Part shown: piece after piece, positions 8,781-54,957 of the stretch
Numbering within the stretch: position 1 is the first letter of the stretch
How the letters are laid out: each line of letters opens with the position of its first letter
Source: an uncultured Anaerolineaceae bacterium
GTDB lineage: Bacteria > Chloroflexota > Anaerolineae > Anaerolineales > Villigracilaceae
Reading direction: 5' to 3'
DNA: 64,000 bases
NCBI GenBank assembly: GCA_964610295.1
Contig: CAZSVR010000012.1
Span: 4,246 to 68,245 of the forward strand
The notes under the pieces: generated by a model
Seen by the model: only the letters and a program-made list of their open reading frames with translations
Databases searched by the model: none
What the model was told of the DNA's origin: nothing
Made by a program: the position numbers and the translations under genes

Positions 8781-9250
8781 CTACCCCCGCCGTCCTTCAC
8801 CCTTGGGGTACTTCGCCGACACCTTCGCAAAGCATACCCGCATCGTCCTCGATGGGGAAAGGGTGCCCCCAAACCCAATGGACTTGCCGTCTCGCATCAG
8901 CGGAGCGATCCTGTGGATAAGCGAAGCAATCCTGTGGATAAGCGAAGCACCGTCCGTGCCGCGAAGTACGACGGCACGTCGGTACGAGACGGCAATCCTG
9001 CGGACCGCCCTGGCGCTGCTCGCGGCATAAGCGAAGCACCGTCCGTGCCGCGAAGTACGACGGCACGTCGGTACGAGACGGCAATCCTGTGGATCAGCGT
9101 AGCCACCCTGTGGGTCAGCGACACTTGCGCCGCACCCCCACTTCGCTGCGCTACGGGGACTTCGTGCGTTCGTTGCAGTGCAGGTGAGCGATCCTGTGGA
9201 CGAACGGGGGTGGCCCACAGGGTGCTTCGCGAAGGCAGCAAGGGGTACTA
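8781..9250. repeat. Composite nested palindromic repeat region (21-mer units, exact 63-bp direct repeat, embedded hairpin elements)
   Basis: AATCCTGTGGATAAGCGAAGC-like units; 8938-9000 = 9027-9089; CACTTG...CAGGTG element at 9122-9186. Confidence 0.85.
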
Positions 9251-9366
9251 TGCCATGCGAAAAATCGCACCTGAGTTGGGGCTGGCAGAGAACGTTCCAG
9301 AGTGAAAGTGATTTCGGTGTCCACGATTCATTGGGCGCAAGGATGTAGCGTGTCTCTTTTTAATAC

Positions 9367-9395
9367 TTGACTCGAACCCTTCATCGTTATACACT
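9367..9395 (+). promoter_or_regulatory. Sigma70-type promoter TTGACT-N17-TACACT
   Basis: Near-consensus boxes with 17-bp spacer upstream of 9458. Confidence 0.7.
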
Positions 9396-9457
9396 CAACC
9401 TAACAACAGGAACAAGACTGCCTAAATCTGGCTCACCTTATCGGTAAAGGAGCGACC

Positions 9458-10078
9458 ATGTCAGAGGAACGATTTGTCTCACGCGGTTTTGTCGGCAAGC
9501 GGCGCGCAGGGGAGAAAAAGGATCGCATCCCGCCTGGTCAATATCTCACAAATGATTTCCCTGTGCTCTCAGCGGGACCAACCCCTTATACGCCCCTCGA
9601 TAAATGGACCTTCAGCATTGATGGTCTTGTCAAAGAAAAGGTTTCATGGACATGGCAGGAGTTCCTCAAACTCCCCATGCAGAAATATGTGGTGGATATT
9701 TCCTGCGTCACCAAATGGACGCATCTCGACATGAAGTGGGAGGGCGTCAGCCTCGATACGCTCCTCGAACATGTTGAACTCGACCGCAAAGCCATGTTCG
9801 TCACGGCGCATAGCGATGGCGGCTACACCACCAACCTGCCGCTCACCGACATCATAAACGGTCAATCCTTCATAGCTTTGAAATACGATGATAAACCTTT
9901 AGCCCCCGAACACGGCGGTCCCGCGCGCATGGTTGTGCCGCATCTGTATTTCTGGAAGAGCGCCAAGTGGGCGCGCGGTGTCCACTTCATTGAAAAAGAC
10001 AAGCCCGGCTTCTGGGAATCGGCTGGATATCACAACCATGCCGACCCGTGGAAAGAACAGCGGTATTGGAATGACTGA
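9458..10078 (+). CDS. Sulfite oxidase-like molybdopterin oxidoreductase
   Basis: RIPPGQ, DISCVTKWT, EHGGPAR, YFWKSAKW, GFWESAGYH. Confidence 0.9.
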   Translation: MSEERFVSRGFVGKRRAGEKKDRIPPGQYLTNDFPVLSAGPTPYTPLDKWTFSIDGLVKEKVSWTWQEFLKLPMQKYVVDISCVTKWTHLDMKWEGVSLDTLLEHVELDRKAMFVTAHSDGGYTTNLPLTDIINGQSFIALKYDDKPLAPEHGGPARMVVPHLYFWKSAKWARGVHFIEKDKPGFWESAGYHNHADPWKEQRYWND

Positions 10079-10083
10079 TGTAT

Positions 10084-10275
10084 GTCATGCTGAGGAGCGA
10101 CACTTGCACCGCACTCCCACTCCGCTGCGCTACGCCCACTCGCTGCGCTCGGGACTGCCGCTTTGCGGCGTGCGCGAGGGACTTCGTGCGTTTGGTGCAG
10201 TGCAGGTGAGCGACGAAGCAATCTCGCACATCGCGAGGGGATTGCTTCGGTGGAAGAACGCCACCTCGCAATGAC
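10084..10275. repeat. GTC..GCGAG/CGAAGCAATC/CTCGCAATGAC-type REP interrupted by a 108-bp CACTTG...CAGGTG element
   Basis: AGCGA duplicated at 10096-10100 and 10209-10213; uninterrupted relatives at 51557 and 57347. Confidence 0.85.
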
Positions 10276-10289
10276 GGTTCGGAGAGCTT

Positions 10290-11030
10290 ATGAAACAAAC
10301 ACTGGACTGGCAAATCGCTTCGGTCACGGACATCAAGCCTGAAACCCCTAAAGTGAAATCGTTGACGCTGAGACTCCCAGCGTGGATGCGTCACCGCGCG
10401 GGACAGCATTACGACCTGCGCCTCACCGCCCAAGATGGCTATCAAACCCAACGCAGTTACTCCATCGCATCAGAACCAGAGCGCGCAGGGGAGGTTGACA
10501 TCACGGTGGAGCGTATCAACGATGGTGAAGTCTCGACCTACTTGCATGATGTGCTTGTCAAGGGAGACCGCCTCGAAATGCGCGGACCGATCGGCGGCTA
10601 CTTCGTCTGGGAGGCGAAAATTACCGATCCGTTGTTGTTGATCGCGGGTGGGTCAGGCGTTGTGCCATTGATGTCCATGCTTCGTCATCGCGCCGCGGCT
10701 GGAGGAAAGCATCCGGCCAGTCTACTATATAGTTCACGCAACTTTGAAGACATCATCTACTTCAACGAACTCGAAAAACTGCGCGGGGCAATTAACGGCG
10801 TGCAGGTTCTTCACACGCTTACACGCTCCCAACCCGCGGGTTGGAAGGGATATGCGCGGCGCATTGATCAGGAGATGTTGAAGGAAGTCGCGCAGCCTTT
10901 GGGTAAATCTGTTCAAGTTTTCATTTGTGGACCGACGCTTTTGGTTGAATCCACTGCCAATGCCCTGGTCAAAATTGGTGTTCGCGTGGACAACATTCGC
11001 ACGGAAAGATTCGGTCCATCAGGAGGATGA
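10290..11030 (+). CDS. Ferredoxin-NADP reductase-like FAD/NAD-binding oxidoreductase
   Basis: RSYSIAS, GEVSTYL, RGPIG, IAGGSGVVP, ICGP, ERFG. Confidence 0.9.
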   Translation: MKQTLDWQIASVTDIKPETPKVKSLTLRLPAWMRHRAGQHYDLRLTAQDGYQTQRSYSIASEPERAGEVDITVERINDGEVSTYLHDVLVKGDRLEMRGPIGGYFVWEAKITDPLLLIAGGSGVVPLMSMLRHRAAAGGKHPASLLYSSRNFEDIIYFNELEKLRGAINGVQVLHTLTRSQPAGWKGYARRIDQEMLKEVAQPLGKSVQVFICGPTLLVESTANALVKIGVRVDNIRTERFGPSGG

Positions 11031-11033
11031 GCC

Positions 11034-11321
11034 ATGCAAGAGACAACAGATATTAACCGTGAACTTATGCTGGATGCGAACGCGACCGCAGGTCTGCTTT
11101 ACGAAATCTTTGGCACGGAAATGACCGCCGCGCCGACCGAATGTGCCAATTGTGGCAATGAAGCAGAGATCGGCACGTTGCTGGCTTTCACGCACGGACC
11201 GGGGATCGTATTGCGCTGTTCCGCCTGTGAGCAGGTGGTCTTGCGCATCACACAAACCCCCACGGAAATATTACTCGATGCGCGCGGCGCGGTGTATTTG
11301 AGGTTGGCAAGAATAAAATAA
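11034..11321 (+). CDS. DUF6510-like small Cys protein
   Basis: LDANATAGLL, CANC and CSAC pairs. Confidence 0.65.
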   Translation: MQETTDINRELMLDANATAGLLYEIFGTEMTAAPTECANCGNEAEIGTLLAFTHGPGIVLRCSACEQVVLRITQTPTEILLDARGAVYLRLARIK

Positions 11322-11336
11322 AGGGTCCAAGGTTAC

Positions 11337-11449
11337 CTACCCCCACCGTCCTGTCCCCTTCGGGCACCTCCCCCAAATCCGCAATTCATTCTCCAAATAA
11401 TTATGCTGAGGTTTTATTGCGTATTTGGGGGAGGCTCGGGAAGGGGTAG
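11337..11449. repeat. Inverted-repeat element (CCTCCCCCAAAT arms)
   Basis: 11367-11385 vs 11416-11434 match 18/19 as inverted repeats; outer CTACCCC/GGGGTAG. Confidence 0.7.
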
Positions 11450-11577
11450 CAAAAGATGCGTTCGCACATCCTAGGCACATCCTTCGTACTTCTTTGTAAA
11501 TGGTTCCTACTGGATGTATCCACTATATAGTAGCAACGGTACATCGCCAAAAGTGCGACTTCCTGAAAGAAGCAATC

Positions 11578-11608
11578 AAAAAATCCTAGCCAATGGCTAG
11601 GATTTTTT
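11578..11608. terminator. Bidirectional intrinsic terminator
   Basis: A6-TCCTAGCC-aat-GGCTAGGA-T6. Confidence 0.85.
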
Positions 11609-12129
11609 CTTTTTCTTTTTCCTTCTAGTTGATTTTTTCATAGGAATTGGCATTGGATGTTGAGGTTGTTTTTCTCTCTCCCTTCCAACCCGAATAAAAT
11701 TCACTATTCCGCCAAGAAATCCTCCAAGCAATACTGAATAGCCTTGAACATTCTTCCCAACCCAAAGTAAACCAATACCACCCAAAGAGAGAATTCCAAA
11801 AAGAACGAAACCTAATTTCAGCCCTAGATCAGCGCGACGAACATCACCTTGTATACACTGTTTTCTAATCCAAAACGATGTTCTTGTTGCTTCTCGGCCA
11901 TACGGAAAATTCGCTTTGGAGCATCTGGCATCACTGCCTTATACTGTGCAAATATTTTTGGATGAGGCAGTGGGCCAGAAAAAGATTCAAAGTAAGAGAA
12001 TATTCTTCGAACATTCTCTTTCCCCCCGGCCTTTTCGATTATTTCGTCGGGGATTCTTATCTCGTTGCCTGGCTCTGCCTTGGCTTTATTCCCTTTATTA
12101 GCAGGGAAGATTTCCTTTCCCTCAGCCAT
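11597..12129 (-). pseudogene. DUF2335-like membrane protein with a single-base frameshift near 11854
   Basis: FSGPLPHP...APKRIFRMAEKQQEHR; adding one A restores NSVIQGDVRRADLGLKLGFVLFG into the 11597-11785 ORF. Confidence 0.75.
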
Positions 12130-12355
12130 CCTGTTCCTCTAAATGCTCTAATGGATGTTCCTCGGCAAATATTCGAATCGCTTTACGAATGTCATTACCA
12201 ACAAATTGCCAATCAGATTCTATTGAACGAAAATCTGCCTCATTATTTGAGCGCGAAAAGTTATATTTATTCAAGCGTCCTCTAAAGTCGAACAGTCTAG
12301 CAATTCCCTCAAAGAATGAGGGGCGTGAGTATAAGCGATAAATCTCTTTGCCCAT
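12122..12355 (-). CDS. Small conserved-looking protein upstream of DUF2335
   Basis: SFFEGIARLFD...AD..IESDWQFVGNDI pattern; overlaps the DUF2335 start. Confidence 0.7.
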   Translation of the reverse strand: MGKEIYRLYSRPSFFEGIARLFDFRGRLNKYNFSRSNNEADFRSIESDWQFVGNDIRKAIRIFAEEHPLEHLEEQDG

Positions 12356-12516
12356 TCTTAGATTTATTCCTTTCTTTTGTTCTTTTTATTTCTTAGAATT
12401 TGACTGTATATGAAGTTTTCGCAGACACGAACAGGTGAGCTATAAACCCTTATTAGGATAACTGATGATTATAATTAGCACATTAGCTAATTGCAATATC
12501 ATTATACCGCTTTTGA

Positions 12517-15129
12517 TTATTTCTTTTTCCTCTTAGCAGGCTTTGAAGCCTTCTTTGGTAAGGCTTTCTTCATTGCTTTCTTTGTTTTCTTAGCCGGTTT
12601 TGCTTTCTTTCCCTTCGGGGACGATGTCGCAGCGGCTTTGGTCTTCTTTCCTTCCTTCTTCTTTACTTCCTCCACCTTCTTTACCGGAATAAATCTCTCC
12701 AACGCCCAGCCCACGGCCACAGCCACCACTTCCTCGCCGGGCTTCACTTCCACGACAACGTCGCCTTTGCTCGCGGCGCGTTTACGTATGGCCGCCAGAT
12801 CCAAGCGTGCGGATTTCGCCGCGCCTTTGCTCAAATGAACCGTCGCTACGGTATTCGGCTTGCCTGAAACCACACCAGCGATTTTCACATTCCTAGCTAG
12901 ATCCCAAACGGTCACCCCTTTGCCGTAACGTCCCTGCACGGGGAATTCCCTTTGGTCTACGCGCTTGGCTTTGCCATCAGACGTGAGCAGGAAGATCTCG
13001 CCCTCGGCAGGCAAAATTTCCATGCCGCTTACTTCGTCTTTATCTTCCAGCTTGATGCCGTTCACACCCGCGGCGACGAGTCCCATCGCGCGCACATCGT
13101 CTTCCTTAAATCGTATCGCCATGCCTTGCGATGTAACCAGCAGAACATGCTTCTTTTTGCCATCGGTCAGCCCAACCCAGCCGAGTCTATCGCCTTCGTT
13201 GACGCGCGCCAAAGCGAACGTCTGCGAGGAGGGACCGGGCAATTCACCGATCAATGTCTTCTTGACCATGCCAAAGCGCGTGGTCGTGATCACGCACGCT
13301 TCTGCGGTCAGGTCACTCTTACGCGCGGGTAATGCAAACACAGCCGCGAGCGGGTCGCTTTCAGTTAATGGCGAGACTTTATAGTACATCGAGCCGTTGC
13401 TTAATTTATCTGACTCAGGCAGCAAGTGTGCGGCCACCGCGGCGGTTTTACCCAACTTGCTCACGAAATAGATCGTGTCCGTTGTGGAAGCCTTCACCAA
13501 AAAGCGCGGCGCGTCGTTGCCCGAGTGTTTCGGCTGCTTGTCATCGTGTGTGCGCGAGACCATCCCGCCATCGGTCACACCCACCCACACAACCTGATCA
13601 GGCAGCAGGTCATTGGCGGTTAATGTCTTCCCGCCTGTTCCGGTTTTCGAACTGACGATCTGCGTGCGGCGGCGGTCTGCATACGCGGCTTTTACTTTCA
13701 ATAATTCTTCGGCCATCACACCACGCAATTTCTTCGGGGATTTCAACAGATCGTTCAGGCCCTTGATCAGCGCGGTCATTTCCTTGTATTCGGTTTCGAT
13801 CTTCTTGCGTTCGAGTGCGGCCAGCCTGCGCAACTGCATATCCAGGATGGCGGTCGCCTGTAACTCCGTCAGCTTGTAGCGCTTCATCAGTTTGGCACGC
13901 GCAGTTTCAACGTCCGGCGCGGCGCGGATGATCCCGATCAATTCATCCAGGTTCTTCAAGGCGATCATATATCCCTCAAGGATATGCGCGCGCGCTTTGG
14001 CCTTTTCCAGGTCGAATTCAGCGCGTCTTTTAATGACCGTCAGCCTGTGCTCAATATACACCCGCAGTGCCTGCTTCAGGGTCAGGGTGTGCGGCTCGTT
14101 GTCGACTAAGGCCAGCAGGTTGATGCTGAAAGTGGTCTGCATGGGTGTGCGTTTGTAGAGCTCGCGCAAAACGAAATCGGGATTCGCGTTCTTGGTCATT
14201 TCCAGGACGATGCGCATGCCCTGGCGATCGGATTCATCGCGCAGGTCGGATAATCCCTCGAGATGCCCATCGCGCGCCAGTTCGGCAATGCGCTCGATCA
14301 GGCTGGACTTGTTGACCATGTACGGCAATTCGGACACAATGATGCGGCTCTTGCCGCGTTCCATCTCCTCCACATGCGCCTTGGCCTGCACAGTGACGCG
14401 CCCGCGCCCGGAACCATACGCGGACTCGATCCCCTCTTCACCCTTCTCCTGAATGATCAGGCCGCCTGTGGGAAAATCCGGACCTTTCACAAATTTCATC
14501 AATTGCTCAACATCGATGTCGTCGAGTTTCTCCCAGCGATCAAGCATGTAGATGATGGCATCGATGATCTCGCCCAAATTATGCGGCGGGATCGAAGTTG
14601 CCATACCCACCGCGATACCCGTCGCACCGTTGACCAGTAAGTTCGGCAGCGCGGCGGGCAGGACATCCGGCTCTGCAAGTGTGTCGTCAAAGTTCGGTTT
14701 GAAATTAACCGTGTTCTTGTTGATATCGGTCAACATCTCCATGGCAGGGCTGGCAAGACGCGCTTCTGTATAACGCATGGCCGCAGGCGGGTCGCCATCC
14801 ACAGAACCGAAGTTACCCTGTCCATCCACGAGCATGGTGCGCATCGAAAAATCCTGCGCGAGGCGCGCCATGGCTTCATACACGGATGAGTCGCCGTGCG
14901 GATGATATTTACCGAGCACTTCACCCACGATACGAGCGGATTTCTTGTAGGCTGTGTCTGCGCGAATGCCCATGTCGTACATCGCATACAAGATGCGGCG
15001 TTGCACAGGCTTCATGCCGTCGCGCGCGTCAGGCAATGCACGCGCCACGATCACGCTCATCGCATAATCGAGATACGACTGTTGCATTTCCTGGTCAATG
15101 TCTATTTTTTTAATTAAGCCAAGGTCCAT
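12517..15129 (-). CDS. parC: Type IIA topoisomerase A subunit, ParC-like (no GyrA box), with Lys/Ala-rich tail
   Basis: [29 protein letters not shown]; first CTD blade lacks QRRGGKG. Confidence 0.75.
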
Positions 15130-15146
15130 ATGAAATCCTTTTTTTT

Positions 15147-15265
15147 GCCGTCTCGCACCGACGTGCCATCGAGGTTCGCGGCACGAACGATGAACCGCGA
15201 AGCACGCTAAGTGCGCTAAGAAAAACCTTATGGGCTTCTTCGCGTTCTTCGCGCTCTTAGCGGTT
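15147..15265. repeat. Two palindromic elements in the topoisomerase 5' UTR
   Basis: 15147-15190 is an inverted relative of the 44-bp hairpin at 8950-8993; 15193-15265 has AACCGCGAAG...CTTAGCGGTT arms. Confidence 0.75.
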
Positions 15266-15306
15266 AAAGATCTTTTGCAGTGAATGTATGTTCTATTGCG
15301 GGGCTT

Positions 15307-15335
15307 ATCTTACGGGGAAAGGGAAAAGGCGTCAA
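15307..15335 (-). promoter_or_regulatory. Promoter TTGACG-N17-TAAGAT for the topoisomerase gene
   Basis: Reverse strand; 17-bp spacer. Confidence 0.65.
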
Positions 15336-15398
15336 GGTAGATGGCTTCTTGCATATAACAAGTTTATGATATCGCGAACATTCCTCTTGAGGTGTACC

Positions 15399-15476
15399 AT
15401 GGATGAGACCACCAAATTGATCATCACAACCCGCGTGCCCATTCTCCTGGCAATCGTCGGATATCTGGCCATGTAG
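15399..15476 (+). pseudogene. 25-codon hydrophobic gene stump (possibly a transporter N-terminus)
   Basis: SD GAGGTG; MDETTKLIITTRVPILLAIVGYLAM*. Confidence 0.35.
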
Positions 15477-15591
15477 CTTTATAATCAGTATACAAAAAGG
15501 TCCTTTGAAATCTTAAAAGCGGAACAGGATAGATTGCCTGGAAAAAGTTAGGGCTCGACCGTCTTAATAGCTTACATCGTTGAGGTGACCT

Positions 15592-16008
15592 GTGAAACTT
15601 AATACTGCCAAGGAAGTATGGATCGCGCGTATGATCGCCTGGCTTGTGATCGGGGCGCTTTCCTGTGGGATCATTTTTATGACCACATTCACGCTCGGAC
15701 CCACTTTGTTCGGTGGTTCCAACATGACCGACAGGATCGCACTGGCAATGTATTGCCCCGGCGCGGAATCATCCACTTTACAGGAAGGCGCCTCGACGCC
15801 CACCACTTCAGACCCAACCGGCACGTATGGTCACACAGTGGAGGTCACCTGCTATTTCGCGGATGGAAGCACGCAGATCATCCGGAACGAGCAGTACGCG
15901 CTGGCATCCATCGGGGGCATGTTCGGCATCGGCGGGTTGATCGGCGTGGTGATCTCCATTCCCATTTTTCTTCTACCTTTCTTCCTGATCAGGAAAAAGA
16001 AACAATAA
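15592..16008 (+). CDS. Hypothetical two-TM membrane protein
   Basis: SD GAGGTG; hydrophobic ends around a Thr-rich loop with two Cys. Confidence 0.65.
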   Translation: MKLNTAKEVWIARMIAWLVIGALSCGIIFMTTFTLGPTLFGGSNMTDRIALAMYCPGAESSTLQEGASTPTTSDPTGTYGHTVEVTCYFADGSTQIIRNEQYALASIGGMFGIGGLIGVVISIPIFLLPFFLIRKKKQ

Positions 16009-16075
16009 TTTCAGATTAAGTCCCTTTCGGTCACTTGTTGTTGTAAAATAAAAGGAAAATTTTCAGGAGGATAAA

Positions 16076-16630
16076 ATGGCTTCTTCAATTGACGATCTGG
16101 TCTCCATGGGTGATATAGAGTCACTGTATGAGATCCTGGTGGAGGAGGACGACTGGATGATGCAACTCGACGCCGCCGAGGGACTCGCCAAACTTCGCGA
16201 CAGACGCGGCCTTGAATTCCTGATCAGCGCGGAGCAAAGCGATGACGAGGAAGTTAAGGAAGTTGCCAAAGAGATCCTGGATACGCCGGAGATCAAGCGC
16301 AGGCTGGAGGATCTCAAGGCGGATGAAGAAGAACAACGCAGGGAAAGGATCGGGGTCGCCAGGAAACGCCTGCAAAAAGGAAAGAAGGTCTTTCGTTACA
16401 AAATGGTCTACATGCCCGCAGGCGATATCCTGAATGAAGATCCATTGAGTCAGGGATTCGAGATCCCCGCGTTGGATGAATTCGGATTTGAAGGCTGGGA
16501 GGTGATCAACTTCATCCCGCGCCGCAGACAGGTGCTGGCTGGTTCAGTGGACGAACACTTCAGCGGCGCGTACTTCCTGCTCAAGCGCGAGGTTGCGGCG
16601 GATGAATCCGCAGAGCTGGATGAGACATAA
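16076..16630 (+). CDS. HEAT-like repeat plus DUF4177-like domain protein
   Basis: DAAEGLAKL helix pair; FRYKMV...LDEFGFEGWEVI...YFLLKRE. Confidence 0.6.
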   Translation: MASSIDDLVSMGDIESLYEILVEEDDWMMQLDAAEGLAKLRDRRGLEFLISAEQSDDEEVKEVAKEILDTPEIKRRLEDLKADEEEQRRERIGVARKRLQKGKKVFRYKMVYMPAGDILNEDPLSQGFEIPALDEFGFEGWEVINFIPRRRQVLAGSVDEHFSGAYFLLKREVAADESAELDET

Positions 16631-16746
16631 GTTCCATTAATTATGAAGGGACAGGTTCAACACGCGTCCCCTTTTGATCAAGGAATGAACTCGATCTTCT
16701 TTTTGGTACACAAGCCTCTCTGACCCCTGGATGAAAAGGAGGCGCT

Positions 16747-17598: not shown

Positions 17599-17607
17599 AC
17601 CTCTATT

Positions 17608-17641
17608 AAAAACAGAGCGGCCTTGCGGCCGCTCTGTTTTT
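17608..17641. terminator. Bidirectional terminator between HD-GYP gene and rpoC
   Basis: AAAAACAGAGCGGCC-ttgc-GGCCGCTCTGTTTTT. Confidence 0.88.
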
Positions 17642-17652
17642 AATAACTGATG

Positions 17653-17938
17653 TTACGCACCGTCCCGAAGGTTTGATCGGCTAAACAGGGTTTTTCACCG
17701 TTCGTCCGCAGGATCGCTTCGCTGATGCCGCGATCAGCGGCAGCCCGAACGGGGTGCGAGACGGCAAGGAAACCTTCAGGACGTTCTCCCGAAAGACACA
17801 CCTGCACCCCTGGCACTTGCACCCAGGACAAGTGTGCAACAAACGCACGAAGTCCCTCGCGCAGCATCCCGAGCGCAGCGAGTGGGCCTAGCGCAGCGGA
17901 GTGGGAGTGCGGCGCAAGTGTCGGGACGATGTGCGTAA
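17653..17938. repeat. Composite nested palindromic element
   Basis: Outer TTACGCAC..CGTCCCGA inverted arms; 17698-17768 is an inverted relative of the 8.9-kb unit; CACTTG...CAGGTG element inverted at 17799-17920. Confidence 0.8.
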
Positions 17939-17955
17939 GGTGAGTTGTTAATGAT

Positions 17956-22375: not shown

Positions 22376-22384
22376 GGGCATCAA

Positions 22385-35955: not shown

Positions 35956-36030
35956 CACTTGCACCGCACTCCGCTGCGCTAGGCCCACTCGCTGCGCGAG
36001 GGACTTCGTGCGTTCGGTGCAGTTCAGGTG
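35956..36030 (+). repeat. CACTTG...CAGGTG element (75 bp)
   Basis: Shares ends and the GGGACTTCGTGCGTT core with 9122, 10101 and 17799. Confidence 0.85.
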
Positions 36031-45444: not shown

Positions 45445-45473
45445 TTGACGGTTAATCTTAGCCGTGCTATTAT
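45445..45473 (+). promoter_or_regulatory. Promoter TTGACG-N17-TATTAT
   Basis: 17-bp spacer with extended TG; upstream of the PIN/TRAM gene. Confidence 0.7.
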
Positions 45474-45518
45474 AAGTCTTGGTCTTATTTTGTTCTTTTT
45501 ATTATAAAGGAGTTATTA

Positions 45519-46592: not shown

Positions 46593-46607
46593 CCCGCCGA
46601 TGGCCCA

Positions 46608-47822
46608 TTATATGGATGAACGCGGAATATACCGGATAATTTTTTCGGGCACAATTAATGAGTATCCCACAACGAACATGATCAGGTAAACGATCGAAAA
46701 TTTCAGTGTGCCTGAACCAGCGAAGCTCAAACCGGCCAGCAGGGAAACGACCAGCGAAATAATTGACGGATAATATTGCTGAACAATATTATCTTTTTCC
46801 AAAATGCGGATAAGACAAAATATTGGGATCAATAAAAGAGTTAAGTCATGATAGTGGGCGTAGGGCAAAAGGAATATGGCTGCTATCGATATCAAGCCAA
46901 TGTGCTTTTCGCTGATCTCCCTGCTTTTGTACCACCACATGCAAAAACCTGCGACTCCCAGAACATAGCATATCCAGATCATGGTTTTTACCGGCTCTGG
47001 ATCGGTGATCCTAAAATTCCGTCTGACAATACCGGAAATTGTTGGCATATCGAAAGAGTGCGGTTCGTGCCAGATGGTATTCTCAATATACCTGATACTT
47101 TCAATAAATTTATAGGCTCCGTCGATTTTTATCAGCGCCAGACTGATTCCAGCCAGTATCAAACTTCCAATGGCAAAGCCCCAAAAAACGTTCCGATGAC
47201 GGAACAGGAAAGGAATCGCCAGGATCAAGGCGATCTGTGGGCGGACCGTAGTCAGGCTTAATCCCAGGCCTGCCAGTAAATATTTTTTGGATAATGTTCC
47301 CGAGGCCCAGAGTATCGCCCCCAACAGTAATATTGCGGTATCCTGCCCGTTCATGAAACCGCTAAATGTTGGAAAAAACAAAAAAGCCCCCATGTACAAA
47401 ATAACAAGGTTCTCTTTTGTAAACCTGCTCATTTCCAACATCTTAACCAGAAGATGGACATTAAGCACATTAAGCAGCAGCAAAACGATCGCCCACCTTT
47501 TGAAGGAGTTTACATAATCCTCATCCACCAGGGCTGTTGCAAGCGGGGCGATAAAAGGCAGGTGTGTATAAAAAATGGGAACAACTTCATGACCGACAAC
47601 CTCTTGCTCGATCTTTTTTTGTTCCTCCATGTCGTGTATATATTGAAACCCCCTGGTCTGGGAAATTCTCCCGTATGCATAAAAACCGATAAAATCTGAA
47701 CCATTTCTTGTTTTCGGATCTGCGATCATCATCGCCCATAAAAATACATAGACCAGGGACAACGAAAATAAACCCGTAAAGGCAAAGATTCGACGATAGT
47801 TTAGATTTCCCATATATGTCAT
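46608..47822 (-). CDS. GT87/DUF2029-like membrane glycosyltransferase
   Basis: SDFIGFY, NGQDT, poly-TM; AT-richer than its neighbours. Confidence 0.7.
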   Translation of the reverse strand: MTYMGNLNYRRIFAFTGLFSLSLVYVFLWAMMIADPKTRNGSDFIGFYAYGRISQTRGFQYIHDMEEQKKIEQEVVGHEVVPIFYTHLPFIAPLATALVDEDYVNSFKRWAIVLLLLNVLNVHLLVKMLEMSRFTKENLVILYMGAFLFFPTFSGFMNGQDTAILLLGAILWASGTLSKKYLLAGLGLSLTTVRPQIALILAIPFLFRHRNVFWGFAIGSLILAGISLALIKIDGAYKFIESIRYIENTIWHEPHSFDMPTISGIVRRNFRITDPEPVKTMIWICYVLGVAGFCMWWYKSREISEKHIGLISIAAIFLLPYAHYHDLTLLLIPIFCLIRILEKDNIVQQYYPSIISLVVSLLAGLSFAGSGTLKFSIVYLIMFVVGYSLIVPEKIIRYIPRSSI

Positions 47823-47985
47823 TTATACCAGAATTATCAACTGAAATTATTCAGGTTCATCAACAAGGCGACGGCGCGGTTCACGGGAGCATGGGTGTAA
47901 AATAAAAGATGCGCAGAGCGTATCTGCTGGATCCATTCTGTGTTCGCATTGTATCCACAACAGTATCTGTGGTAAAAATGGCCTC

Positions 47986-49383
47986 ATGCTGCGAATTTAT
48001 AACACCCTCACCCGTAAGACAGAAGATTTTCAAACTCTCGAACCGAACCTCGTCAAGATGTACGTCTGCGGCGTCACGGTCTATAACGACGCGCATGTCG
48101 GTCACGCCATGTCCGCGCTGGTATTCGACATCATCCGCCGCTATCTTGAATATCGCGGTTACAAAGTCAAACATGTTATGAACTATACGGACGTGGACGA
48201 TAAGATCATCAATCGCGCGAAACAGCTCAACGAAGACCCGCTTAAACTCTCGCAACGATACATCGAAGATTATGCAAACGACCTGAATAATCTGAATGTA
48301 TTACCGGCCACATCGAATCCGCAAGTCAGCAAGACCATGCCGCTGATCATCAAGTTCATCGAGGGTTTGATTCAAAAAGAAGCTGCATACGCCGCGCCAA
48401 ATGGAGATGTATACTTCCGCGTCATCAGTGACGACGATTACGGAAAACTCTCGGGCCGCAAACTGGACGACATGCAGGCAGGCGCGCGCATCGAAGTGGA
48501 GGAAGCCAAAGATCATCCGATGGACTTCGCCCTTTGGAAAGCTGCAAAGCCCGGTGAAATATCCTGGGATAGTCCGTGGGGCAAAGGACGCCCCGGCTGG
48601 CACATCGAATGCTCGGCCATGAACCTCGCCGAGCTCGGCGAACAAATTGACATTCACGGCGGCGGCAACGACCTGATCTTCCCGCATCATGAGAACGAGA
48701 TCGCACAAACCGAAAGTTACACGGGCAAGGAATTCTCACGCTATTGGGTCCACAACGGCATGTTGCAACTCGGCGGCGAGAAAATGTCCAAGTCGCTGGG
48801 CAATATCGTCAGCATCAAGGAATTTTTATCGAAGCGATCCGCGGATGTGCTGCGCATGCTCGTTTTGAACGGGACCTATCGCGCGCCGCTATTGTTCAAC
48901 GACGAGACCCTGGACGCCGCCGAAAAGAATGTCGAACGGCTGAAATCCGGACTTCGGCCTGCCGCGCCCTCCTCAAAGGGAATCAATGCTGAGTCCGTTG
49001 CCCACCTCGCGGCCACGGCCGCATCTGCCAAGACCAACTTCACCGACGCCATGGACAACGACTTCAACACCGCGGGCGCGATCGCCGCGTTGTTCGAGAT
49101 CGTCAAAGCCATCAATATCGCGCGCGACAACGGCGCGACAGATGTGCAGCTCAAGCCCGCACAAGACCTCTTCCATGAATTCGCAAATGTGCTTGGCTTG
49201 AAACTCGAGGACAAACAAGGTTCCGGCGGCGCGGAGAAGTTCGTTGACCTGCTGATCGAAGTACGAAACGATGTGAGAAAGCAGAAGTTGTGGGCTTTAT
49301 CCGACCAGATCCGAGACAAATTGAAAGAACTTGGCGTGACGATGGAAGACAGCAAGGATGGAACGACCTGGCGATGGGGATAG
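47986..49383 (+). CDS. cysS: Cysteine--tRNA ligase
   Basis: CGVTVY, HVGH, DFALWK, GRPGWHIECS, KMSKS. Confidence 0.98.
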   Translation: MLRIYNTLTRKTEDFQTLEPNLVKMYVCGVTVYNDAHVGHAMSALVFDIIRRYLEYRGYKVKHVMNYTDVDDKIINRAKQLNEDPLKLSQRYIEDYANDLNNLNVLPATSNPQVSKTMPLIIKFIEGLIQKEAAYAAPNGDVYFRVISDDDYGKLSGRKLDDMQAGARIEVEEAKDHPMDFALWKAAKPGEISWDSPWGKGRPGWHIECSAMNLAELGEQIDIHGGGNDLIFPHHENEIAQTESYTGKEFSRYWVHNGMLQLGGEKMSKSLGNIVSIKEFLSKRSADVLRMLVLNGTYRAPLLFNDETLDAAEKNVERLKSGLRPAAPSSKGINAESVAHLAATAASAKTNFTDAMDNDFNTAGAIAALFEIVKAINIARDNGATDVQLKPAQDLFHEFANVLGLKLEDKQGSGGAEKFVDLLIEVRNDVRKQKLWALSDQIRDKLKELGVTMEDSKDGTTWRWG

Positions 49384-49423
49384 ATTAGTCTGATAGTTGG
49401 TTAGTCGAATAGTCTGATAATCG

Positions 49424-49456
49424 AAAACTTCCGAGGCCTAAACTCCCGGAAGTTTT
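49424..49456. repeat. AAAACTTCCG...CGGAAGTTTT hairpin (terminator or RAYT-REP relative)
   Basis: 10-bp stem sharing ACTTCCG/CGGAAGT with the REPs at 508 and 1194. Confidence 0.55.
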
Positions 49457-49480
49457 TATTTCTCAAGTAAAATCAACAGC

Positions 49481-49664
49481 ATGAAAGAATTCATCTACTC
49501 ACGCAACGCTGTCTATGAGACTTTGCGCGCCAGGCGCAGGGAGATTTTCGAGATCGAGATTGCCGATTCCGCGCAGGAAAAAGGAAAATTGGCCGAGATC
49601 ATAAAATTAGCCAATGAACGAAAAATAAAAGTGCACCGTGTGCAGCGCGCCAAGCTGGATAAAG
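49481..49664 (+). pseudogene. rlmB: Orphaned 5' stump (61 codons) of rlmB
   Basis: Colinear with 50827-51010, 47/61 aa identical; own TAAAAT 7 nt upstream. Confidence 0.9.
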
Positions 49665-49668
49665 ATTT

Positions 49669-50655
49669 CTACCGAATGGGGACATACCCGCTTTCTTTAA
49701 CTGTCTCCTGCCCTGCATCTGTGAGGAACCAATCGCGAAGCGCGATCGCAAAACTATCAGGCGGCATGTCAGCGCGCACGACAACATACACTTCTGTCGC
49801 AAGCGGATAGACGCCGCTGGCGATTGTCTCTGAATTCGGATGAACTCCTTCGACTCCAAGCAGTTTGATATTCTCGTCGGGAAGCATGAACGTGGCATAG
49901 TAATAAACGGAGTACCCGATTCCCAGTGTGTCATCGTGAATCGCGCTGATGGGTCCCATCATGCTTGGAAAGATCATGTTTGGCGCATCGGACATTGACC
50001 TGCCTTTCATGACCAGTTCTTCCATTAATTCCTGGCTCCCTGAATTCCTGTCGCGTTGATAGGCATTGATTTCGCCTGCGCCGCCCAGTTCCGACCAGTC
50101 TGCGATTTCCCCTGCGTAGATGCTTCTTATCTGTTCCAGCGTGAGGGAAGTTACAGGATTGTCTTTGTGCACAAGGAAAACAAAAGCATCCAGAGCCATG
50201 GGGCGCACCTCGAGGATCACATCTGCTTTGGCGGCTTCCTTTACTTCGTCATCGGATGGCAGGCGCGCGACGAGGATCAGGTCAGTTTCTTTCTGGATCA
50301 AATTCACATAGGCTTGGTGCGTTCCGCGGTGGAAGATGCTGAGTACAATGCCTCCAGTCTCAGTCAGAGAAGTGGCGAGATCGGGACCGATCCCGCGCTC
50401 TACGACGAACTCCGAAAATGAGGGAAGCGTCCAGGTGCATGCGACGTTCAGTAATTTGCAGGCTGTGAGTATCTGCAACGGATGGGTTGAGGTCGAGCCA
50501 TCCACGCGGGGATAGTTCTGCGCGATGCCTGAGACATCAGGCGTGGGGCCCGGCGTATACGCTCCCGAAGGTGTGATGACTACATCCGCCCTGGATGGCT
50601 GACAACCTGTCAACAGTGCCAGCGAGAAGATCAATACAAATTTTGAAACATTCAT
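49669..50655 (-). CDS. Orphan PstS-like substrate-binding lipoprotein
   Basis: Lipobox LTGC, VDGSTSTHPL, YQRDRNSGSQ, IGYSVYYY; no permease genes nearby. Confidence 0.8.
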   Translation of the reverse strand: MNVSKFVLIFSLALLTGCQPSRADVVITPSGAYTPGPTPDVSGIAQNYPRVDGSTSTHPLQILTACKLLNVACTWTLPSFSEFVVERGIGPDLATSLTETGGIVLSIFHRGTHQAYVNLIQKETDLILVARLPSDDEVKEAAKADVILEVRPMALDAFVFLVHKDNPVTSLTLEQIRSIYAGEIADWSELGGAGEINAYQRDRNSGSQELMEELVMKGRSMSDAPNMIFPSMMGPISAIHDDTLGIGYSVYYYATFMLPDENIKLLGVEGVHPNSETIASGVYPLATEVYVVVRADMPPDSFAIALRDWFLTDAGQETVKESGYVPIR

Positions 50656-50751
50656 TTTAGCCTCCAGATTCGGTAAGGCTCGCCATTTATATTATAGTCC
50701 GTTGATGGAAGACGCGCATGAGCCGTAAAGAACTGCGATATAAAATCTAGC

Positions 50752-50815
50752 AAGTGACAGTCACGTTGCTCCCCTATTTTCCTTCGGGAGTACTCCGCAA
50801 AGGTGACTGTCACTT
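50752..50815. repeat. AAGTGACAGTCAC...GTGACTGTCACTT palindromic element abutting the rlmB -10 box
   Basis: 13-bp inverted arms; TATAAT at 50815-50820. Confidence 0.8.
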
Positions 50816-50826
50816 ATAATCGGGGT

Positions 50827-51555
50827 ATGAAAGAACTCCTCTACTCCCGCAACGCCGTCTATGAAACCTTGCGCGCCGGGCGCAGGGAGATCTTCGCGAT
50901 CGAGATCGCCGATACCGCACAGGATAAAGGCCGCATCGTGGAGATCCTCAAATTGGCAAACGAACAAAAGATAAAAGTAAGCCGCGTACCGCGCGGGAAA
51001 CTGGATAAAGTCCATGAGGATCATCAGGGTGTGGTGGCTGAAGTCAGCAAATATCCGTATTCAGATGTGGTTGAGATCCTTGAGCAGGCAAAGGGAGAGT
51101 TGCCTTTTGTGCTCATCCTTGATTCTTTGCAAGACCCGCAGAACTTTGGCACGCTTTTGAGAACAGCCGAAGCCATCGGCGTGCATGGCGTGATCATTCC
51201 ATTGGCAAGGACCGTGGATGTGACTCCTGCGGTGGTCAACGCATCCTCTGGTGCAAGCGAGCACTTACTCATTGCACAGTCCAATCTCTCACAGGCAATC
51301 GACGCACTCAAAGATAATGATGTATGGATCGTGGGCCTTGACGAGGCCGGGGCGGAGATCGAAGCTGGCTCACGTCATCTGCGCGGCGCGGTGGGATTGG
51401 TCGTCGGCTCGGAGGGCGAAGGGCTGCACGAGCTCACACGCAAGAAATGCGATATCCTGATGAAACTTCCGATGCGCGGACAGATCGAATCATTGAACGC
51501 GGCCGTCGCCGGGTCGGTCGCGTTGTATCTCGCGTATCTGGCACACACAAAATAG
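50827..51555 (+). CDS. rlmB: 23S rRNA (G2251-2'-O)-methyltransferase
   Basis: HQGVVA, QDPQNFG, GSEGEG, SLNAAVA; leaderless start. Confidence 0.93.
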   Translation: MKELLYSRNAVYETLRAGRREIFAIEIADTAQDKGRIVEILKLANEQKIKVSRVPRGKLDKVHEDHQGVVAEVSKYPYSDVVEILEQAKGELPFVLILDSLQDPQNFGTLLRTAEAIGVHGVIIPLARTVDVTPAVVNASSGASEHLLIAQSNLSQAIDALKDNDVWIVGLDEAGAEIEAGSRHLRGAVGLVVGSEGEGLHELTRKKCDILMKLPMRGQIESLNAAVAGSVALYLAYLAHTK

Positions 51556-51556
51556 C

Positions 51557-51646
51557 ATGTCGTTGCGAGGGCGGCGCTCTTCCGCCCAAAGCAATCTCCC
51601 ACTTAGCGAGGAGACTGCTTCGCCAAGGAGCGGCTCGCAGCGACAT
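51557..51646. repeat. GTCGTTGCGAG/AAGCAATC/CTCGCAGCGAC REP-type element
   Basis: Nested inverted arms; relatives at 10084 and 57347. Confidence 0.8.
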
Positions 51647-51663
51647 AATCGACAGGAGAAATC

Positions 51664-53022
51664 ATGCCTCAGGCAACTTATCATTTTCCGAAGGGATTTT
51701 TGTGGGGAACGGCAACCGCGTCCCACCAGGTGGAAGGCAACAACACGAATAACAATTGGCACAAGTGGGAAGAAGAAGGTCATACAGTTCACAAATCCGG
51801 TCTCGCCTGTGATTGGTGGGGTGGACGCTGGCGAGAAGACTTCGACCGCGCCGCCGAATCAGGTCAGAACGCGCATCGTTTATCTGTGGAGTGGAGCCGC
51901 ATTCAACCCACGCCCGATACATGGAATGAGGACGCGCTCGAAAAATATCGAACTATGTTGCGCGGGCTACGCGAGCGCGGCATCACGCCGATGGTCACGC
52001 TTCATCACTTCACCGATCCGCTATGGCTTACCGAACGCGGCGCCCATTCGACACTCCCTTCGGTCGCAGGGCAAGCATGGGAGACGGAAGAGGTTGTGCC
52101 ATTGTTCGAGAAATTCACGCGCAAAGTAGTGGATGCGTTGAAGGAATATGTGACGTTGTGGTGCACGATCAACGAACCGAATGTATATGCGTTGAGTGGA
52201 TATGTAACAGGCGCGTTCCCACCGGGCAGGAAAAACATAAGATTATCCATGCGTGTGATCGCGAATATGCTGCGCGGTCACGCCGCGGCCTATCGCGCCA
52301 TTCATGAACTGCAACCCGAAGCGCGCGTCGGTTATGCCTTGCATTATCGCCCAATGGTGTCGCGTATAAGATGGTCGCCATTGGATCGGTGGATGAGAAA
52401 CATTCGATATAGCAGGATCAACATGGGCTTCCCCTCCGCGATATCCACTGGCGTGATGAGATCACCAGTCGGAAATCAAAGCATTCCCGAAGCAAAAGGT
52501 ACGCAGGATTACGTTGGACTCAATTATTACTCTGTGGACACTGTCTGGTTTGATATTTCAAAACCCGGCGAATTATTTTCAAATAGCGGCTATCCAAAAG
52601 ATGCTGATATGAGCGATAACAATTATCTCGCCAACATTCCCGAAGGGATCTTCGACTCTATAAAATGGATCGTCCGCACGTACCCGAACACACCCATCAT
52701 CATCACAGAGAACGGCGTGGAGGACGCAGACGATCACATGCGCCCGCGTTATCTTGCGCAACATCTTCATCAGGTATGGCGCGCAGTCAATTTCAATTGG
52801 CCGGTCAAGGGATATTTCCACTGGTCATTGGTGGATAACTTCGAATGGGAGCGCGGCTGGACCCAGCCTTTCGGCCTGTGGGGATTGGATATAGATACAC
52901 AAAAACGCATCAGACGCCCAAGCGTGGATTTGTATGCTGAGATCTGCAAAGAGAACGGGATCTCAAGCGAAATGGTGCAGAAGTATTGTCCCGAGGCGTT
53001 TGACAAGCTATTCCCTGTTTGA
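51664..53022 (+). CDS. GH1 beta-glucosidase with an 11-aa repeat-derived insertion
   Basis: ATASHQVEG, TLHHF, TINEP, ITENG, WSLVDNFEW. Confidence 0.92.
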   Translation: MPQATYHFPKGFLWGTATASHQVEGNNTNNNWHKWEEEGHTVHKSGLACDWWGGRWREDFDRAAESGQNAHRLSVEWSRIQPTPDTWNEDALEKYRTMLRGLRERGITPMVTLHHFTDPLWLTERGAHSTLPSVAGQAWETEEVVPLFEKFTRKVVDALKEYVTLWCTINEPNVYALSGYVTGAFPPGRKNIRLSMRVIANMLRGHAAAYRAIHELQPEARVGYALHYRPMVSRIRWSPLDRWMRNIRYSRINMGFPSAISTGVMRSPVGNQSIPEAKGTQDYVGLNYYSVDTVWFDISKPGELFSNSGYPKDADMSDNNYLANIPEGIFDSIKWIVRTYPNTPIIITENGVEDADDHMRPRYLAQHLHQVWRAVNFNWPVKGYFHWSLVDNFEWERGWTQPFGLWGLDIDTQKRIRRPSVDLYAEICKENGISSEMVQKYCPEAFDKLFPV

Positions 53023-53050
53023 TCGGAAAGAAAGTGAAGGAGAATTGGAC

Positions 53051-53857
53051 ATGGATCTCAAAATTCAACTTACAGGTTTGAACGAATTGCTATCCATTAT
53101 CTATGGGGACAAGCTGCAGTTGAGCACCTTGCTGCGCGAAATCGGATTTGAGGGTTCCCAGATCGAACACTTGCAAGAGCAGCATCTCGAGTCCATTGTC
53201 CCCCAGTTTTTGGAGGTCATCCACAAGCGCCTGACGAGCGATTCAGGTAAGGATACCTATTATCAGATCCTGAGCCGTCGTTATGGATTGGACGGCCAAC
53301 CACCCGAGCAACTTCCTGCGATCGCCGCCAAGGAAAATCACAGCCCGGAATATCTGCGTCAGTTATTCGAAGAGATCATTCAAAGATGCCAGAGCAAAAC
53401 ATGGCAGGCCGAACTCCGCAAGAGCCTGAAATATATTGCCGTTTCTCAACTGGAGAAAATGAATGAGCGCCCGACACGTGAGCACATTGCTGAAAAACTG
53501 GAACGCCTGACCAATTTACGCGGCGCGGCGGACGTGGCCCGCCTGGATTACGAAGCCAAACGCGCGGAGATCCTTAAGCAGATCCAGGCCGAGCTGGATG
53601 CGCTCGATTCCGAATACACGCCCATACTTGAAGCAGCCGACGAAAATATTGCCGCGCTGGAAAATGAGATCAAGACCGAGGTGCTTTTGCACGGTGAAAG
53701 TGTTTCAGGTGGGGTCTATCGCGCCACGTACACGCAGGGACGCGTCTCATGGGATAACGATGGCATGGCCAAGTATGCAGCTTCCCACCCAGACGTGGCC
53801 CAATTCCGCAAACAGGGACAACCCATCGTCTCTTTGCGCACGGTGAAACAAGATTGA
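53051..53857 (+). CDS. Hypothetical protein: sigma70 region-4-like HTH, coiled coil, phage Gam/Gp157-like C-terminus
   Basis: ILSRRYGLDG...YLRQL; GRVSWD...HPDVAQFRK; domain calls are pattern-based. Confidence 0.5.
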   Translation: MDLKIQLTGLNELLSIIYGDKLQLSTLLREIGFEGSQIEHLQEQHLESIVPQFLEVIHKRLTSDSGKDTYYQILSRRYGLDGQPPEQLPAIAAKENHSPEYLRQLFEEIIQRCQSKTWQAELRKSLKYIAVSQLEKMNERPTREHIAEKLERLTNLRGAADVARLDYEAKRAEILKQIQAELDALDSEYTPILEAADENIAALENEIKTEVLLHGESVSGGVYRATYTQGRVSWDNDGMAKYAASHPDVAQFRKQGQPIVSLRTVKQD

Positions 53858-54957
53858 ATTTGCCTCCCGATTTCATCCAAACCATCCAAAGCACGTCTGG
53901 AGAAGATGGAAAACAATTGATCGAAGATCTTCCCAATCTGATCGCAGAGGCATCAATCAGGTGGGGATTATCGAATATTGAACCGATCCCAAACCTATCC
54001 TTCAACTTTGTGGCGTTTGCAAAACAGGTCTCGATACGGCGGCGTTGGTCGAGTAGGACGAAGTCCGTATACTTGCGCCGCACTGCGTTTGTTGCAGTGC
54101 AGGTGTCGAGACCCGCCGCCTACTCGACCAACCAGCAGGACGTAGTACTGAAAATTGGGGTGCCACGCGATGAATCGATCAGCGAAATGGCCGCGTTGCG
54201 TCTCTTCAATGGCGATGGCGCGTGCCGTTTACTAGAATATGATGAGTCGCGCGGTTTTTTATTGCTGGAACGACTTCGGCCTGGGACGATGCTCTCGGAA
54301 TTGGAAGATGATGACGAACGCACTCACATCGCTGCGCAGGTGATGAGCAAGCTTTGGCGAGAAATTCCTGTAGACTCCGCTCAAGGCGGCGTCCCCGCCG
54401 CCGTCCCACAGGGATGCTTCGCGAAGGACGGCGGCTTGAGCATTGTTTCCAAATTTATTAAATTATCAGATTGGTTTGATGGGTTGAAGAGGATTCGTCC
54501 ACATTTCAATGGAGGAACCGGACCCTTCCCAAAAGAACTTTTGGAACAAGTGGACGCTTTTTTGCCAGAGTTGTTCGCGGATGAAAACGTAAATCTCATA
54601 CATGGGGATTTTCATCACTTCAATGTGTTGCTGTCAGACCGCGGCTGGCTGGCGATCGATCCCAAAGGCGTGATCGGCCCAGTGGGTTATGAGGTGGGTC
54701 CGTTCATGCTCAACCCGTGGAGCGGCATCTCGGACGCGCACCAGTTCAAGGCTTGTCCTGAGCGAAGTCGAAGGGTCCAGGCAGAGAGGCGGGTGAGTAT
54801 CCTTTCAGAGAGACTCGGCTGGGAGCGCGAAAAGATCATTCAGTGGGCAACCGCCCATGCCGTCTTATCTGCATGGTGGAGCATAGAAGATGGCGGGGAA
54901 GAAACGGGTTGGGAGTATTCGATGTGGTGTGCACAGATGTTTTCAGAGATTAAATAA
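53854..54957 (+). CDS. Aminoglycoside/hydroxyurea resistance kinase (APH(6)-like) with three repeat-derived in-frame insertions
   Basis: VVLKIG, LLLERL, HGDFHHFN, IDPKG. Confidence 0.85.
   Translation: MNLPPDFIQTIQSTSGEDGKQLIEDLPNLIAEASIRWGLSNIEPIPNLSFNFVAFAKQVSIRRRWSSRTKSVYLRRTAFVAVQVSRPAAYSTNQQDVVLKIGVPRDESISEMAALRLFNGDGACRLLEYDESRGFLLLERLRPGTMLSELEDDDERTHIAAQVMSKLWREIPVDSAQGGVPAAVPQGCFAKDGGLSIVSKFIKLSDWFDGLKRIRPHFNGGTGPFPKELLEQVDAFLPELFADENVNLIHGDFHHFNVLLSDRGWLAIDPKGVIGPVGYEVGPFMLNPWSGISDAHQFKACPERSRRVQAERRVSILSERLGWEREKIIQWATAHAVLSAWWSIEDGGEETGWEYSMWCAQMFSEIK

Follow-up and report, generated by a model that had tools for sequence, protein, structure and literature searches.

Very small CACTTGC...GCAGGTG elements of Anaerolineae insert in other repeats without target duplication

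RESULTS AND DISCUSSION

A family of very small elements probably mobilised in trans

We analysed a 64-kb window (the whole stretch of DNA under study, contig C12:4246-68245) of the genome of an uncultured Anaerolineaceae bacterium (hereafter named G000; 3.73 Mb in 163 contigs, 51.7% G+C), and investigated a family of short repeats of the form CACTTGC...GCAGGTG (hereafter named X) that recurs in it. The results provide good support for the conclusion that X is a non-coding, non-autonomous family of very small elements, which are mobilised in trans and insert without duplication of the target. X inserts preferentially in other palindromic repeats and in itself, and sometimes in frame in genes. 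Genome-wide, approximately 104 paired copies were found in G000 (7.6 kb in total, 0.2% of the genome), and the most frequent 14-mers of this genome come from X. The original prediction, made from the letters of the window alone, had proposed a non-autonomous mobile family with a preference for repeats, and both parts were borne out, by exact empty sites and by an excess of repeated flanks (see below). All of the five copies that it had listed exist; four of its coordinates were exact, and the fifth copy lies at 54070-54105 rather than at 54071-54106. The copies and the small elements within and around them are as follows (here and below, a slash marks the position of an insertion or addition).

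9122..9186, plus strand: X65 copy, the 36-nt core plus 29 nt added internally at GCAC/TGCG
10101..10208, plus strand: X108 copy, at GAGGAGCGA/AGCGACGAAGCAATC in a long palindromic host repeat, intergenic between two genes
17786..17798, minus strand: 3' half (TGTCTTTCGGGAG) of the host hairpin H1, which is split by the X122 copy
17799..17920, minus strand: X122 copy, the 95-nt form with a further 27-nt element, Z
17808..17834, minus strand: Z, 27 nt (CACTTGTCCTGGGTGCAAGTGCCAGGG), nested in the X122 copy after GTTGCA and before GTGCAGGTG
17921..17933, minus strand: 5' half (CACATCGTCCCGA) of the host hairpin H1
35956..36030, plus strand: X75 copy, whose right end is degenerate (GCAGTTCAGGTG), flanked by AAAGCGA/ and /AGGGTCTC
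54070..54105, plus strand: X36 copy, with T rather than C as its first base, inserted in a palindromic host repeat at GTA/TCGAGACC

Exact 14-nt left ends were found four times in the window, plus a fifth with one mismatch, and dinucleotide-preserving shuffles of the window gave a mean of 1.3 left-end matches even when two mismatches were allowed. No X copy beyond the five was detected in the 64 kb. CGA precedes four of the copies on the 5' side, as had been claimed, and GTA precedes the fifth. Of the five, at least four are located inside other repeat families, in agreement with the earlier count of four within another palindromic element.

Insertion junctions and target

The inserted unit was defined by comparing filled host sites, i.e. 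those with X, with empty ones, i.e. the uninterrupted host sites without X. This comparison showed that the exact unit is CACTTGC...GCAGGTG and that no target bases are duplicated or lost. Boundaries exact to the base were obtained for host families of G000 (CACATCGTCCCGA/TGTCCTTCGGGAG, GCGGCATCAGCGA/AGCGATCCTGCGG, TTCCCGACGA/AGCAATC, GAAGGGAGTGA/AGAATCCC and GTA/TCGAGACC). The position of these boundaries is fixed, as the flank ends with A but the element with G, and the element starts with C but the next flank base is A or T. Paralogous empty sites, for which the joined 8+8 flank had to be present elsewhere in G000 as an uninterrupted exact 16-mer, were found for 57 of 103 copies; by our estimate from the genome size, the random expectation of a 16-mer is ~0.002. 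Thirteen copies of the hairpin H1 in G000 are empty, reading CACATCGTCCCGA/TGTCCTTCGGGAG, and nine are filled with X; the X122 copy of the window is one inserted in this hairpin, with the minus-strand flanks CACATCGTCCCGA/.../TGTCTTTCGGGAG. The host repeat of the X65 copy (9122-9186) reads ...GTCAGCGA/AGCGATCCTGTGG, and its uninterrupted form, GCGGCATCAGCGAAGCGATCCTGCGG, was found seven times in the genome.

The direct AGCGA flanking two of the copies had been taken for a duplication. Copies 1 and 2 of the window do indeed have AGCGA on either side. However, the empty host repeats read ...CAGCGA/AGCGATCC..., and since the empty repeat already has AGCGAAGCGA, the AGCGA-AGCGA arrangement is older than the insertion and is not a target-site duplication (TSD). 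The AGCGA duplication was thus rejected.

Analysis of 110 left ends in G000 revealed C in 93, G in 94 and A at position -1 in 108, with the complete CGA in 84. These left ends represent at least 25 distinct flank contexts, and roughly half of the G000 copies have AGCAATC or AGCGATC as a flank. In 126 unique contexts from ~100 other genomes, position -1 was A in 120, position +1 was A or T in 118, position +2 was G in 77, and CGA was present in 43. Thus the CGA flank, found for 76% of the G000 copies, drops to 34% across other genomes, whereas A at -1 is retained in 95-98%. Given A at -1, A or T at +1 and the lower share of CGA elsewhere, the general rule appears to be insertion between A and W. 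Across the genome, the flanks showed the predicted preference for repeats and no sign of the predicted duplication: flank 14-mers occurring at least three times were found for 49% of the X copies, compared with 2.7% of random CGA sites.

Filled and empty sites in a close relative

Comparison of filled and empty sites in relatives, by which the original prediction could be checked, revealed empty sites in both directions between G000 and G082, the closest relative used for comparison (flanking genes 80-87% identical to those of G000). At the site orthologous to the 10101 copy, which is filled in G000, G082 has the host repeat without X. In the reverse case, a 36-nt copy of G082 is located at ...TCGTTCGTA/TCGAGACC, and the G000 site is empty, reading ...TCGTCCATA/TCGAGACC, exact to the base. 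This host site, the same as that of the window X36 copy (GTA/TCGAGACC), is empty on contig C4 of G000 and filled in G082, with exact boundaries. In addition, copies of 27 and 54 nt in apparent coding regions of G082 are absent from G000. No strain-level polymorphism was found at the 10101 copy, the only locus tested, with all four other assemblies of the same species being filled.

One intragenic 54-nt copy (L120, contig C30 of G082) has TCGTAAATCA both 4 nt upstream of its left end and directly after its right end. This candidate for a 10-nt duplication misfits the no-duplication rule seen everywhere else.

The host repeat of the X36 copy of the window sits within the open frame 53854-54957. 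The frame runs through a three-layer nested repeat that includes X36, with ~36 extra residues just before VVLKIG, and its product resembles an aminoglycoside-phosphotransferase-type kinase as judged by eye rather than by a domain search.

Size classes and internal growth

The X copies of G000 fall into discrete size classes, namely 36 nt (32 copies), 65 nt (15), 108 nt (13) and 27 nt (6), as well as 60, 95, 122 nt and longer. X starts with CACTTGC(R)CCGCAC and finishes with GCAGTGCAGGTG, and the smallest units that have been amplified are lone hairpins, 27 and 36 nt in length. The size differences are due to internal additions at two positions, GCAC/TGCG and immediately before the last GTGCAGGTG, so that the internal expansion described in the original prediction was confirmed and placed. 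The inner modules M1-M3 were found in G000 only within X, which indicates that the 65-, 95- and 108-nt classes are subfamilies that grew at GCAC/TGCG and were then multiplied. Taken together, the larger size classes (65, 95, 108 and 122 nt) are subfamilies that gained internal sequence and then multiplied. The subfamilies are specific to lineages: of the 31 genomes covered by the DNA search, G000 alone had the 108-nt form, and a CCGTAC variant of X is common in G082. In other genomes, the GCAC/TGCG position and the loop are occupied by other small elements, including the 24-nt hairpin H1 and X itself.

Z is present in ten copies in G000, all of them before the terminal GTGCAGGTG inside X, and eight of the ten hold a further nested repeat. 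Z shows complementary segments in the order A-B-A'-B' (CACTTG, TCCTGG, CAAGTG and CCAGGG; window 17808-17834, minus strand), and in the Z variants of other genomes A and A' vary in concert (CACC...GGTG), as though a pseudoknot-like fold had been retained. The hairpin H1 (24 nt; CATCGTCCCGA-loop-TCGGGA) hosts X in G000 and is elsewhere itself inserted in the 27- and 36-nt forms of X, after CA and before GTGC. H1 inside X elsewhere, together with X inside H1 in G000, indicates mutual insertion of the two families.

Hairpin structure and strand asymmetry

The ends of X can form a 9-bp stem between CACTTGCRC and GTGCAGGTG with a conserved T.G wobble, in line with the near-inverted ends that had been noted. 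CACTTGC and GCAGGTG were present as ends in at least 95% of 131 copies. Variation within the stem keeps the pairing on one strand only (T.G in 109 and T-A in 8 for one base pair; G.T in 80, A-T in 34 and G-C in 13 for another), and since the G-C class comes from one subfamily, the covariation is weak. When the 27- and 36-nt forms were folded as DNA, an alternative hairpin was preferred, in which CACTTG remains free at the 5' end. A reading of X as an RNA was rejected, because no Rfam match was obtained for X, even at E<=1, and the orientation of X relative to neighbouring genes showed no bias.

Distribution across Anaerolineae and phages

Using a strict pattern for the counts across the genus, we found X in 54 of 95 genomes, with 0-61 copies each. 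In an order-wide sample of 301 genomes and 102 genera, 23 of the genomes and 17 of the genera had X, often as the identical 36-mer, and, among the matches listed for a species collection, it was found in more than 100 contigs of metagenome-assembled genomes (MAGs) of Chloroflexota/Anaerolineae. X inside X was seen in other genomes, where 19 of 144 copies (~13%), mostly of the 27-nt form, are located at least 80 codons deep in open frames.

X was also found on eight IMG/VR contigs, two of which are complete genomes with direct terminal repeats. In one of these two, X is located within the structural module, among the major-head, tail and tape-measure genes. The complete genome of the tailed phage IMGVR_UViG_3300026516_000003 (48,263 bp, direct terminal repeats) has two 28-nt copies (L134:7887-7914 and L141:1616-1643), one of which is placed between tail/adaptor genes of the structural module.

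Search for the mobilising enzyme

The original prediction held that the mobiliser is not in the window. This was confirmed, and none was found elsewhere in what was searched either. The Y1 genes of G000 comprise five RAYT-like genes, one IS200-type TnpA and three Y1-like open reading frames (ORFs) that are apparently catalytically dead. Each RAYT here has its own, different REPs, and the one X copy near a RAYT is an insertion in that RAYT's own REP. A blastn-short comparison of X with the TnpA loci gave chance 7-10-mers only, and the flanks of the single IS200-type TnpA locus are unrelated to X. The ends of the two IS110 copies and the one IS91 copy in G000 are also unrelated to X, and no TnpB was found in this genome. 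A search for insertion sequence (IS) or RAYT genes with matching ends had been suggested as a check, and there are none among the Y1, IS110 and IS91 genes inspected.

No longer autonomous element with X ends was found in G000, where the unpaired ends were variants, contig edges or chance matches, and no left and right ends of X enclose a coding region in this genome. Beside 125 X loci of other genomes, no gene family was enriched, and only ABC transporters and histidine kinases recurred. The phage records with X contained no Y1 gene, in a screen aimed at Y1 genes only.

Among the high-quality genomes of the genus, the C26/C12-type RAYT family, to which the window RAYT (459-1271) belongs, was found in 12 of the 13 that are rich in X, 9 of the 20 that are X-poor and 6 of the 28 that are X-free; as the RAYT-X counts for genus and order ignore kinship and carry no phylogenetic correction, this association may reflect only shared ancestry. 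C8-type RAYTs showed no correlation with X.

The window RAYT is flanked by its own REP (AGACTTCCGAAGTCT), which has 44 strand-matches in the genome, corresponding to ~22 sites. This REP contains the favoured CGA/AG, yet it is never occupied by X. Both of the IS110-family genes of G000 (on contigs C100 and C2), which are only 79% identical, share a ~50-nt 'Y' repeat (TTTGCCGTCTCGCATCGG...CGGCACGAACGGTGTGG; L041:1823-1875 on C100 and the corresponding position of L040 on C2) at the same place within the coding sequence. A conserved protein of ~500-555 aa (L265:1426-2934 in the genome G344) has a receiver-type N-terminus, as judged by eye rather than by a domain search, and a Y1-transposase-like C-terminus with other residues (YFQW / QFI) in place of the HUH histidines and of the catalytic tyrosine. 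This protein was matched in all ten of the other X-bearing genomes screened for Y1, and short paralogues are present in G000 at C27:16289-16810 (L004:1369-1890) and on C62 and C46.

Proposed mechanism and alternative explanations

We consider the best explanation to be that X is a mobile micro-element moved in trans by a proposed HUH-type strand transfer, and give it a probability of approximately 0.5. The enzyme would be host- or phage-borne and would recognise the folded single strand; it would cut and rejoin at both hairpin feet by an HUH-type strand transfer, in the manner of the 'peel and paste' of IS200/IS605 or RAYT, and phages carrying X may spread it between lineages. The lack of a TSD, the constrained 5' flank and the strand-asymmetric hairpin all point to an HUH-type single-strand cut-and-rejoin (PMC5027513).

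Several observations weigh against this explanation. X was not found to flank any of the nine Y1 genes of G000, in flanks of 900 nt, or any of 42 Y1 loci in ten further genomes with X (30 loci from five X-rich genomes and 12 from another five, with flanks of ~1.5 kb); the inspection covered ~60 Y1 genes from 11 genomes altogether. IS200-type TnpA was found in 61 of the 95 genomes of the genus, uncorrelated with X, and order-wide the C26/C12-type RAYT was found in 9 of 23 X-positive compared with 72 of 278 X-negative genomes. Two genomes that are 99% complete, G344 (11 strict copies, some of them X inside X) and G176 (three copies), are without an intact Y1 gene; their sole Y1-like match is the ~500-aa protein described above, whose domain lacks the HUH histidines and tyrosine. 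X is one hairpin with mutually pairing ends, whereas the ends of IS200/IS605 are two subterminal hairpins. In addition, many repeat families carrying CGA/AG are never hit by X, and the orientation of X relative to the local GC skew was 29:49 in G000 and 52:36 the other way for 88 loci of other genomes, in a comparison made without any complete many-copy genome. The missing linkage and the Y1-less genomes count in particular against a Y1 enzyme, and we put this step, the movement of X by a Y1 HUH enzyme, at about one in three, i.e. possible but doubtful.

An enzyme of another kind, such as an unrecognised nuclease/ligase or a recombinase, possibly with its gene on phages or plasmids that the MAG bins lack, is a serious although unlikely alternative. 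It would account for the genomes with nested, identical X copies and no intact Y1 gene, for the absence of a linked transposase at the 125 X loci and for the presence of X in complete phage genomes, and it agrees with 5'-CAC...GTG-3' ends that pair to their tips, unlike those of IS200/IS605. However, no candidate enzyme was found, and the phage records, screened for Y1 genes only, contain none of these. The known TSD-less families IS110, IS607 and IS91 fit worse, as the IS110 and IS91 ends here are unrelated, and the diverse targets of X argue against bridge-RNA targeting. That X is instead a true REP/REPIN, kept by a cognate and vertically inherited RAYT, seems improbable to us. The five RAYT-like genes of G000, the association with the C26/C12-type RAYT family at the genus level and a 36-mer conserved across the order, in line with REPIN persistence (bioRxiv 10.1101/2021.07.10.451892), speak for such a system. 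Yet the REPIN-like nature suggested in the original prediction did not hold, since the GT[AG]G foot is absent from X, the unit is one hairpin and not a REP doublet, and X flanks none of the RAYT or other Y1 genes inspected; moreover, ~13% of the copies elsewhere are intragenic, and the RAYT association is lost in the uncorrected order-wide counts.

Two further explanations carry little weight. X might be immobile itself and spread by duplication or conversion of its host repeats, as a variable module of composites, and it is true that most copies lie in a few host families and that M1-M3, found only inside X, have spread as parts of composites. We regard this as very improbable, because the same host families are both empty and filled with base-exact boundaries, the flanks comprise at least 25 classes in G000 plus unique and coding sites, with 126 contexts elsewhere, and X is found inside X. 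The other explanation, a classical MITE (miniature inverted-repeat transposable element) derived from a DDE-type insertion sequence with AGCGA as a 5-bp target duplication, would fit the imperfect 9-nt terminal inverted repeats and the AGCGA on both sides of two window copies. This is refuted by the empty sites, as the empty host repeats already hold AGCGAAGCGA, and we give it almost no weight: a duplication was not seen in any copy class, the boundaries are unambiguous given that flanking bases are not the same as terminal ones, and no longer element in G000 shares the ends of X. The MITE-like character that had been proposed was therefore not upheld, there being no TSD.

Beyond the trans-mobilised micro-element that we favour, a broader and more speculative possibility is that X, H1 and Z belong to a guild of hairpin 'micro-transposons', none longer than 36 nt, that spans the phylum and is moved without a recognisable transposase. 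Self-nested fresh copies in near-complete genomes without an intact Y1 gene, together with carriage by phages, point in this direction, although we think it unlikely. If true, X would be among the smallest mobile DNAs known and would offer a tractable entry to how SDR (small dispersed repeat)- and REP-like elements move.

Comparison with known repeat families

To our knowledge, the spread of tiny palindromic repeats, such as REPs, SDRs and the Rickettsia palindromic elements (RPEs), is largely unsolved, and exact junctions are rarely known. X supplies hundreds of base-exact junctions, a minimal unit of 27 nt and two internal positions that tolerate extra sequence, as well as natural filled/empty pairs, copies in genes and phages, and genomes with and without candidate enzymes. 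With these features, the mechanism lends itself readily to biochemical and comparative tests. X also has a practical effect in MAGs of Anaerolineae, where it breaks assemblies and creates spurious ORFs and in-frame protein insertions; in G000, 11 of 326 contig ends are within 150 nt of an X copy.

X lacks the defining features of REPIN-RAYT systems, of IS200/IS605 derivatives and of classical MITEs. As with REP/BIME and REPIN-RAYT repeats, X consists of short high-copy hairpins with strand-specific mismatches (PMC3116915; bioRxiv 10.1101/2021.07.10.451892; PMC6006769; PMC3733652), and REPs also occur inside other palindromes and genes (PMC3733652, PMC6006769). However, the foot of the X hairpin bears neither the GT[AG]G nor the CGTC tag. 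A REPIN consists of two inverted REPs plus a spacer (~100 bp), whereas X is a single unit of 27-36 nt, and X flanks none of the RAYTs inspected and has boundaries defined by base-exact filled and empty sites. With IS200/IS605 elements such as IS608 and ISDra2 (PMC5027513, PMC3597680), X shares insertion without duplication of the target and a structure that depends on a strand-asymmetric hairpin. The 5' flank of X is also constrained, most clearly by the A at -1, with CGA varying in frequency between genomes; in the case of IS608, insertion takes place 3' of a tetranucleotide (PMC5027513). In contrast with these elements, the ends of X are imperfect inverted repeats that pair together rather than distinct subterminal hairpins, no TnpA shares the ends of X, and the strand bias of X is inconsistent. 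Known derivatives of IS200/IS605 are several hundred nt in length, compared with 27-36 nt for X. X resembles the RPEs and intragenic REPs (PMC3733652) in being a small palindrome located in frame in genes that probably still work, and its 27- and 36-nt forms are multiples of three. Unlike RPEs, which are longer and have no sequence relation to X, most X copies are intergenic and lie in other repeats. Classical MITEs differ from X by their TSD and by a parent IS sharing the terminal inverted repeats, neither of which was found for X in G000.

SDR elements of Nostocaceae cyanobacteria were reportedly described by Elhai et al. in 2008. SDRs nest in other repeats. In PMC4390886, SDR5 is described as inserting precisely between the third and fourth base of HIP1, and PMC5861425 reports SDRs in Nostocaceae only. 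Going by these two citing papers, SDRs and X are alike in being tiny dispersed mobile repeats with base-precise insertion at a short site and no known mobiliser. X differs in belonging to another phylum, in having CAC...GTG ends that pair, in a looser A/W target and in being found order-wide and on phages, the two being compared by description only. CGTC-type REPs also occur without a dedicated transposase (PMC3733652). In its behaviour, X thus appears closest to the SDR elements of Nostocaceae and to these transposase-less CGTC-type REPs.

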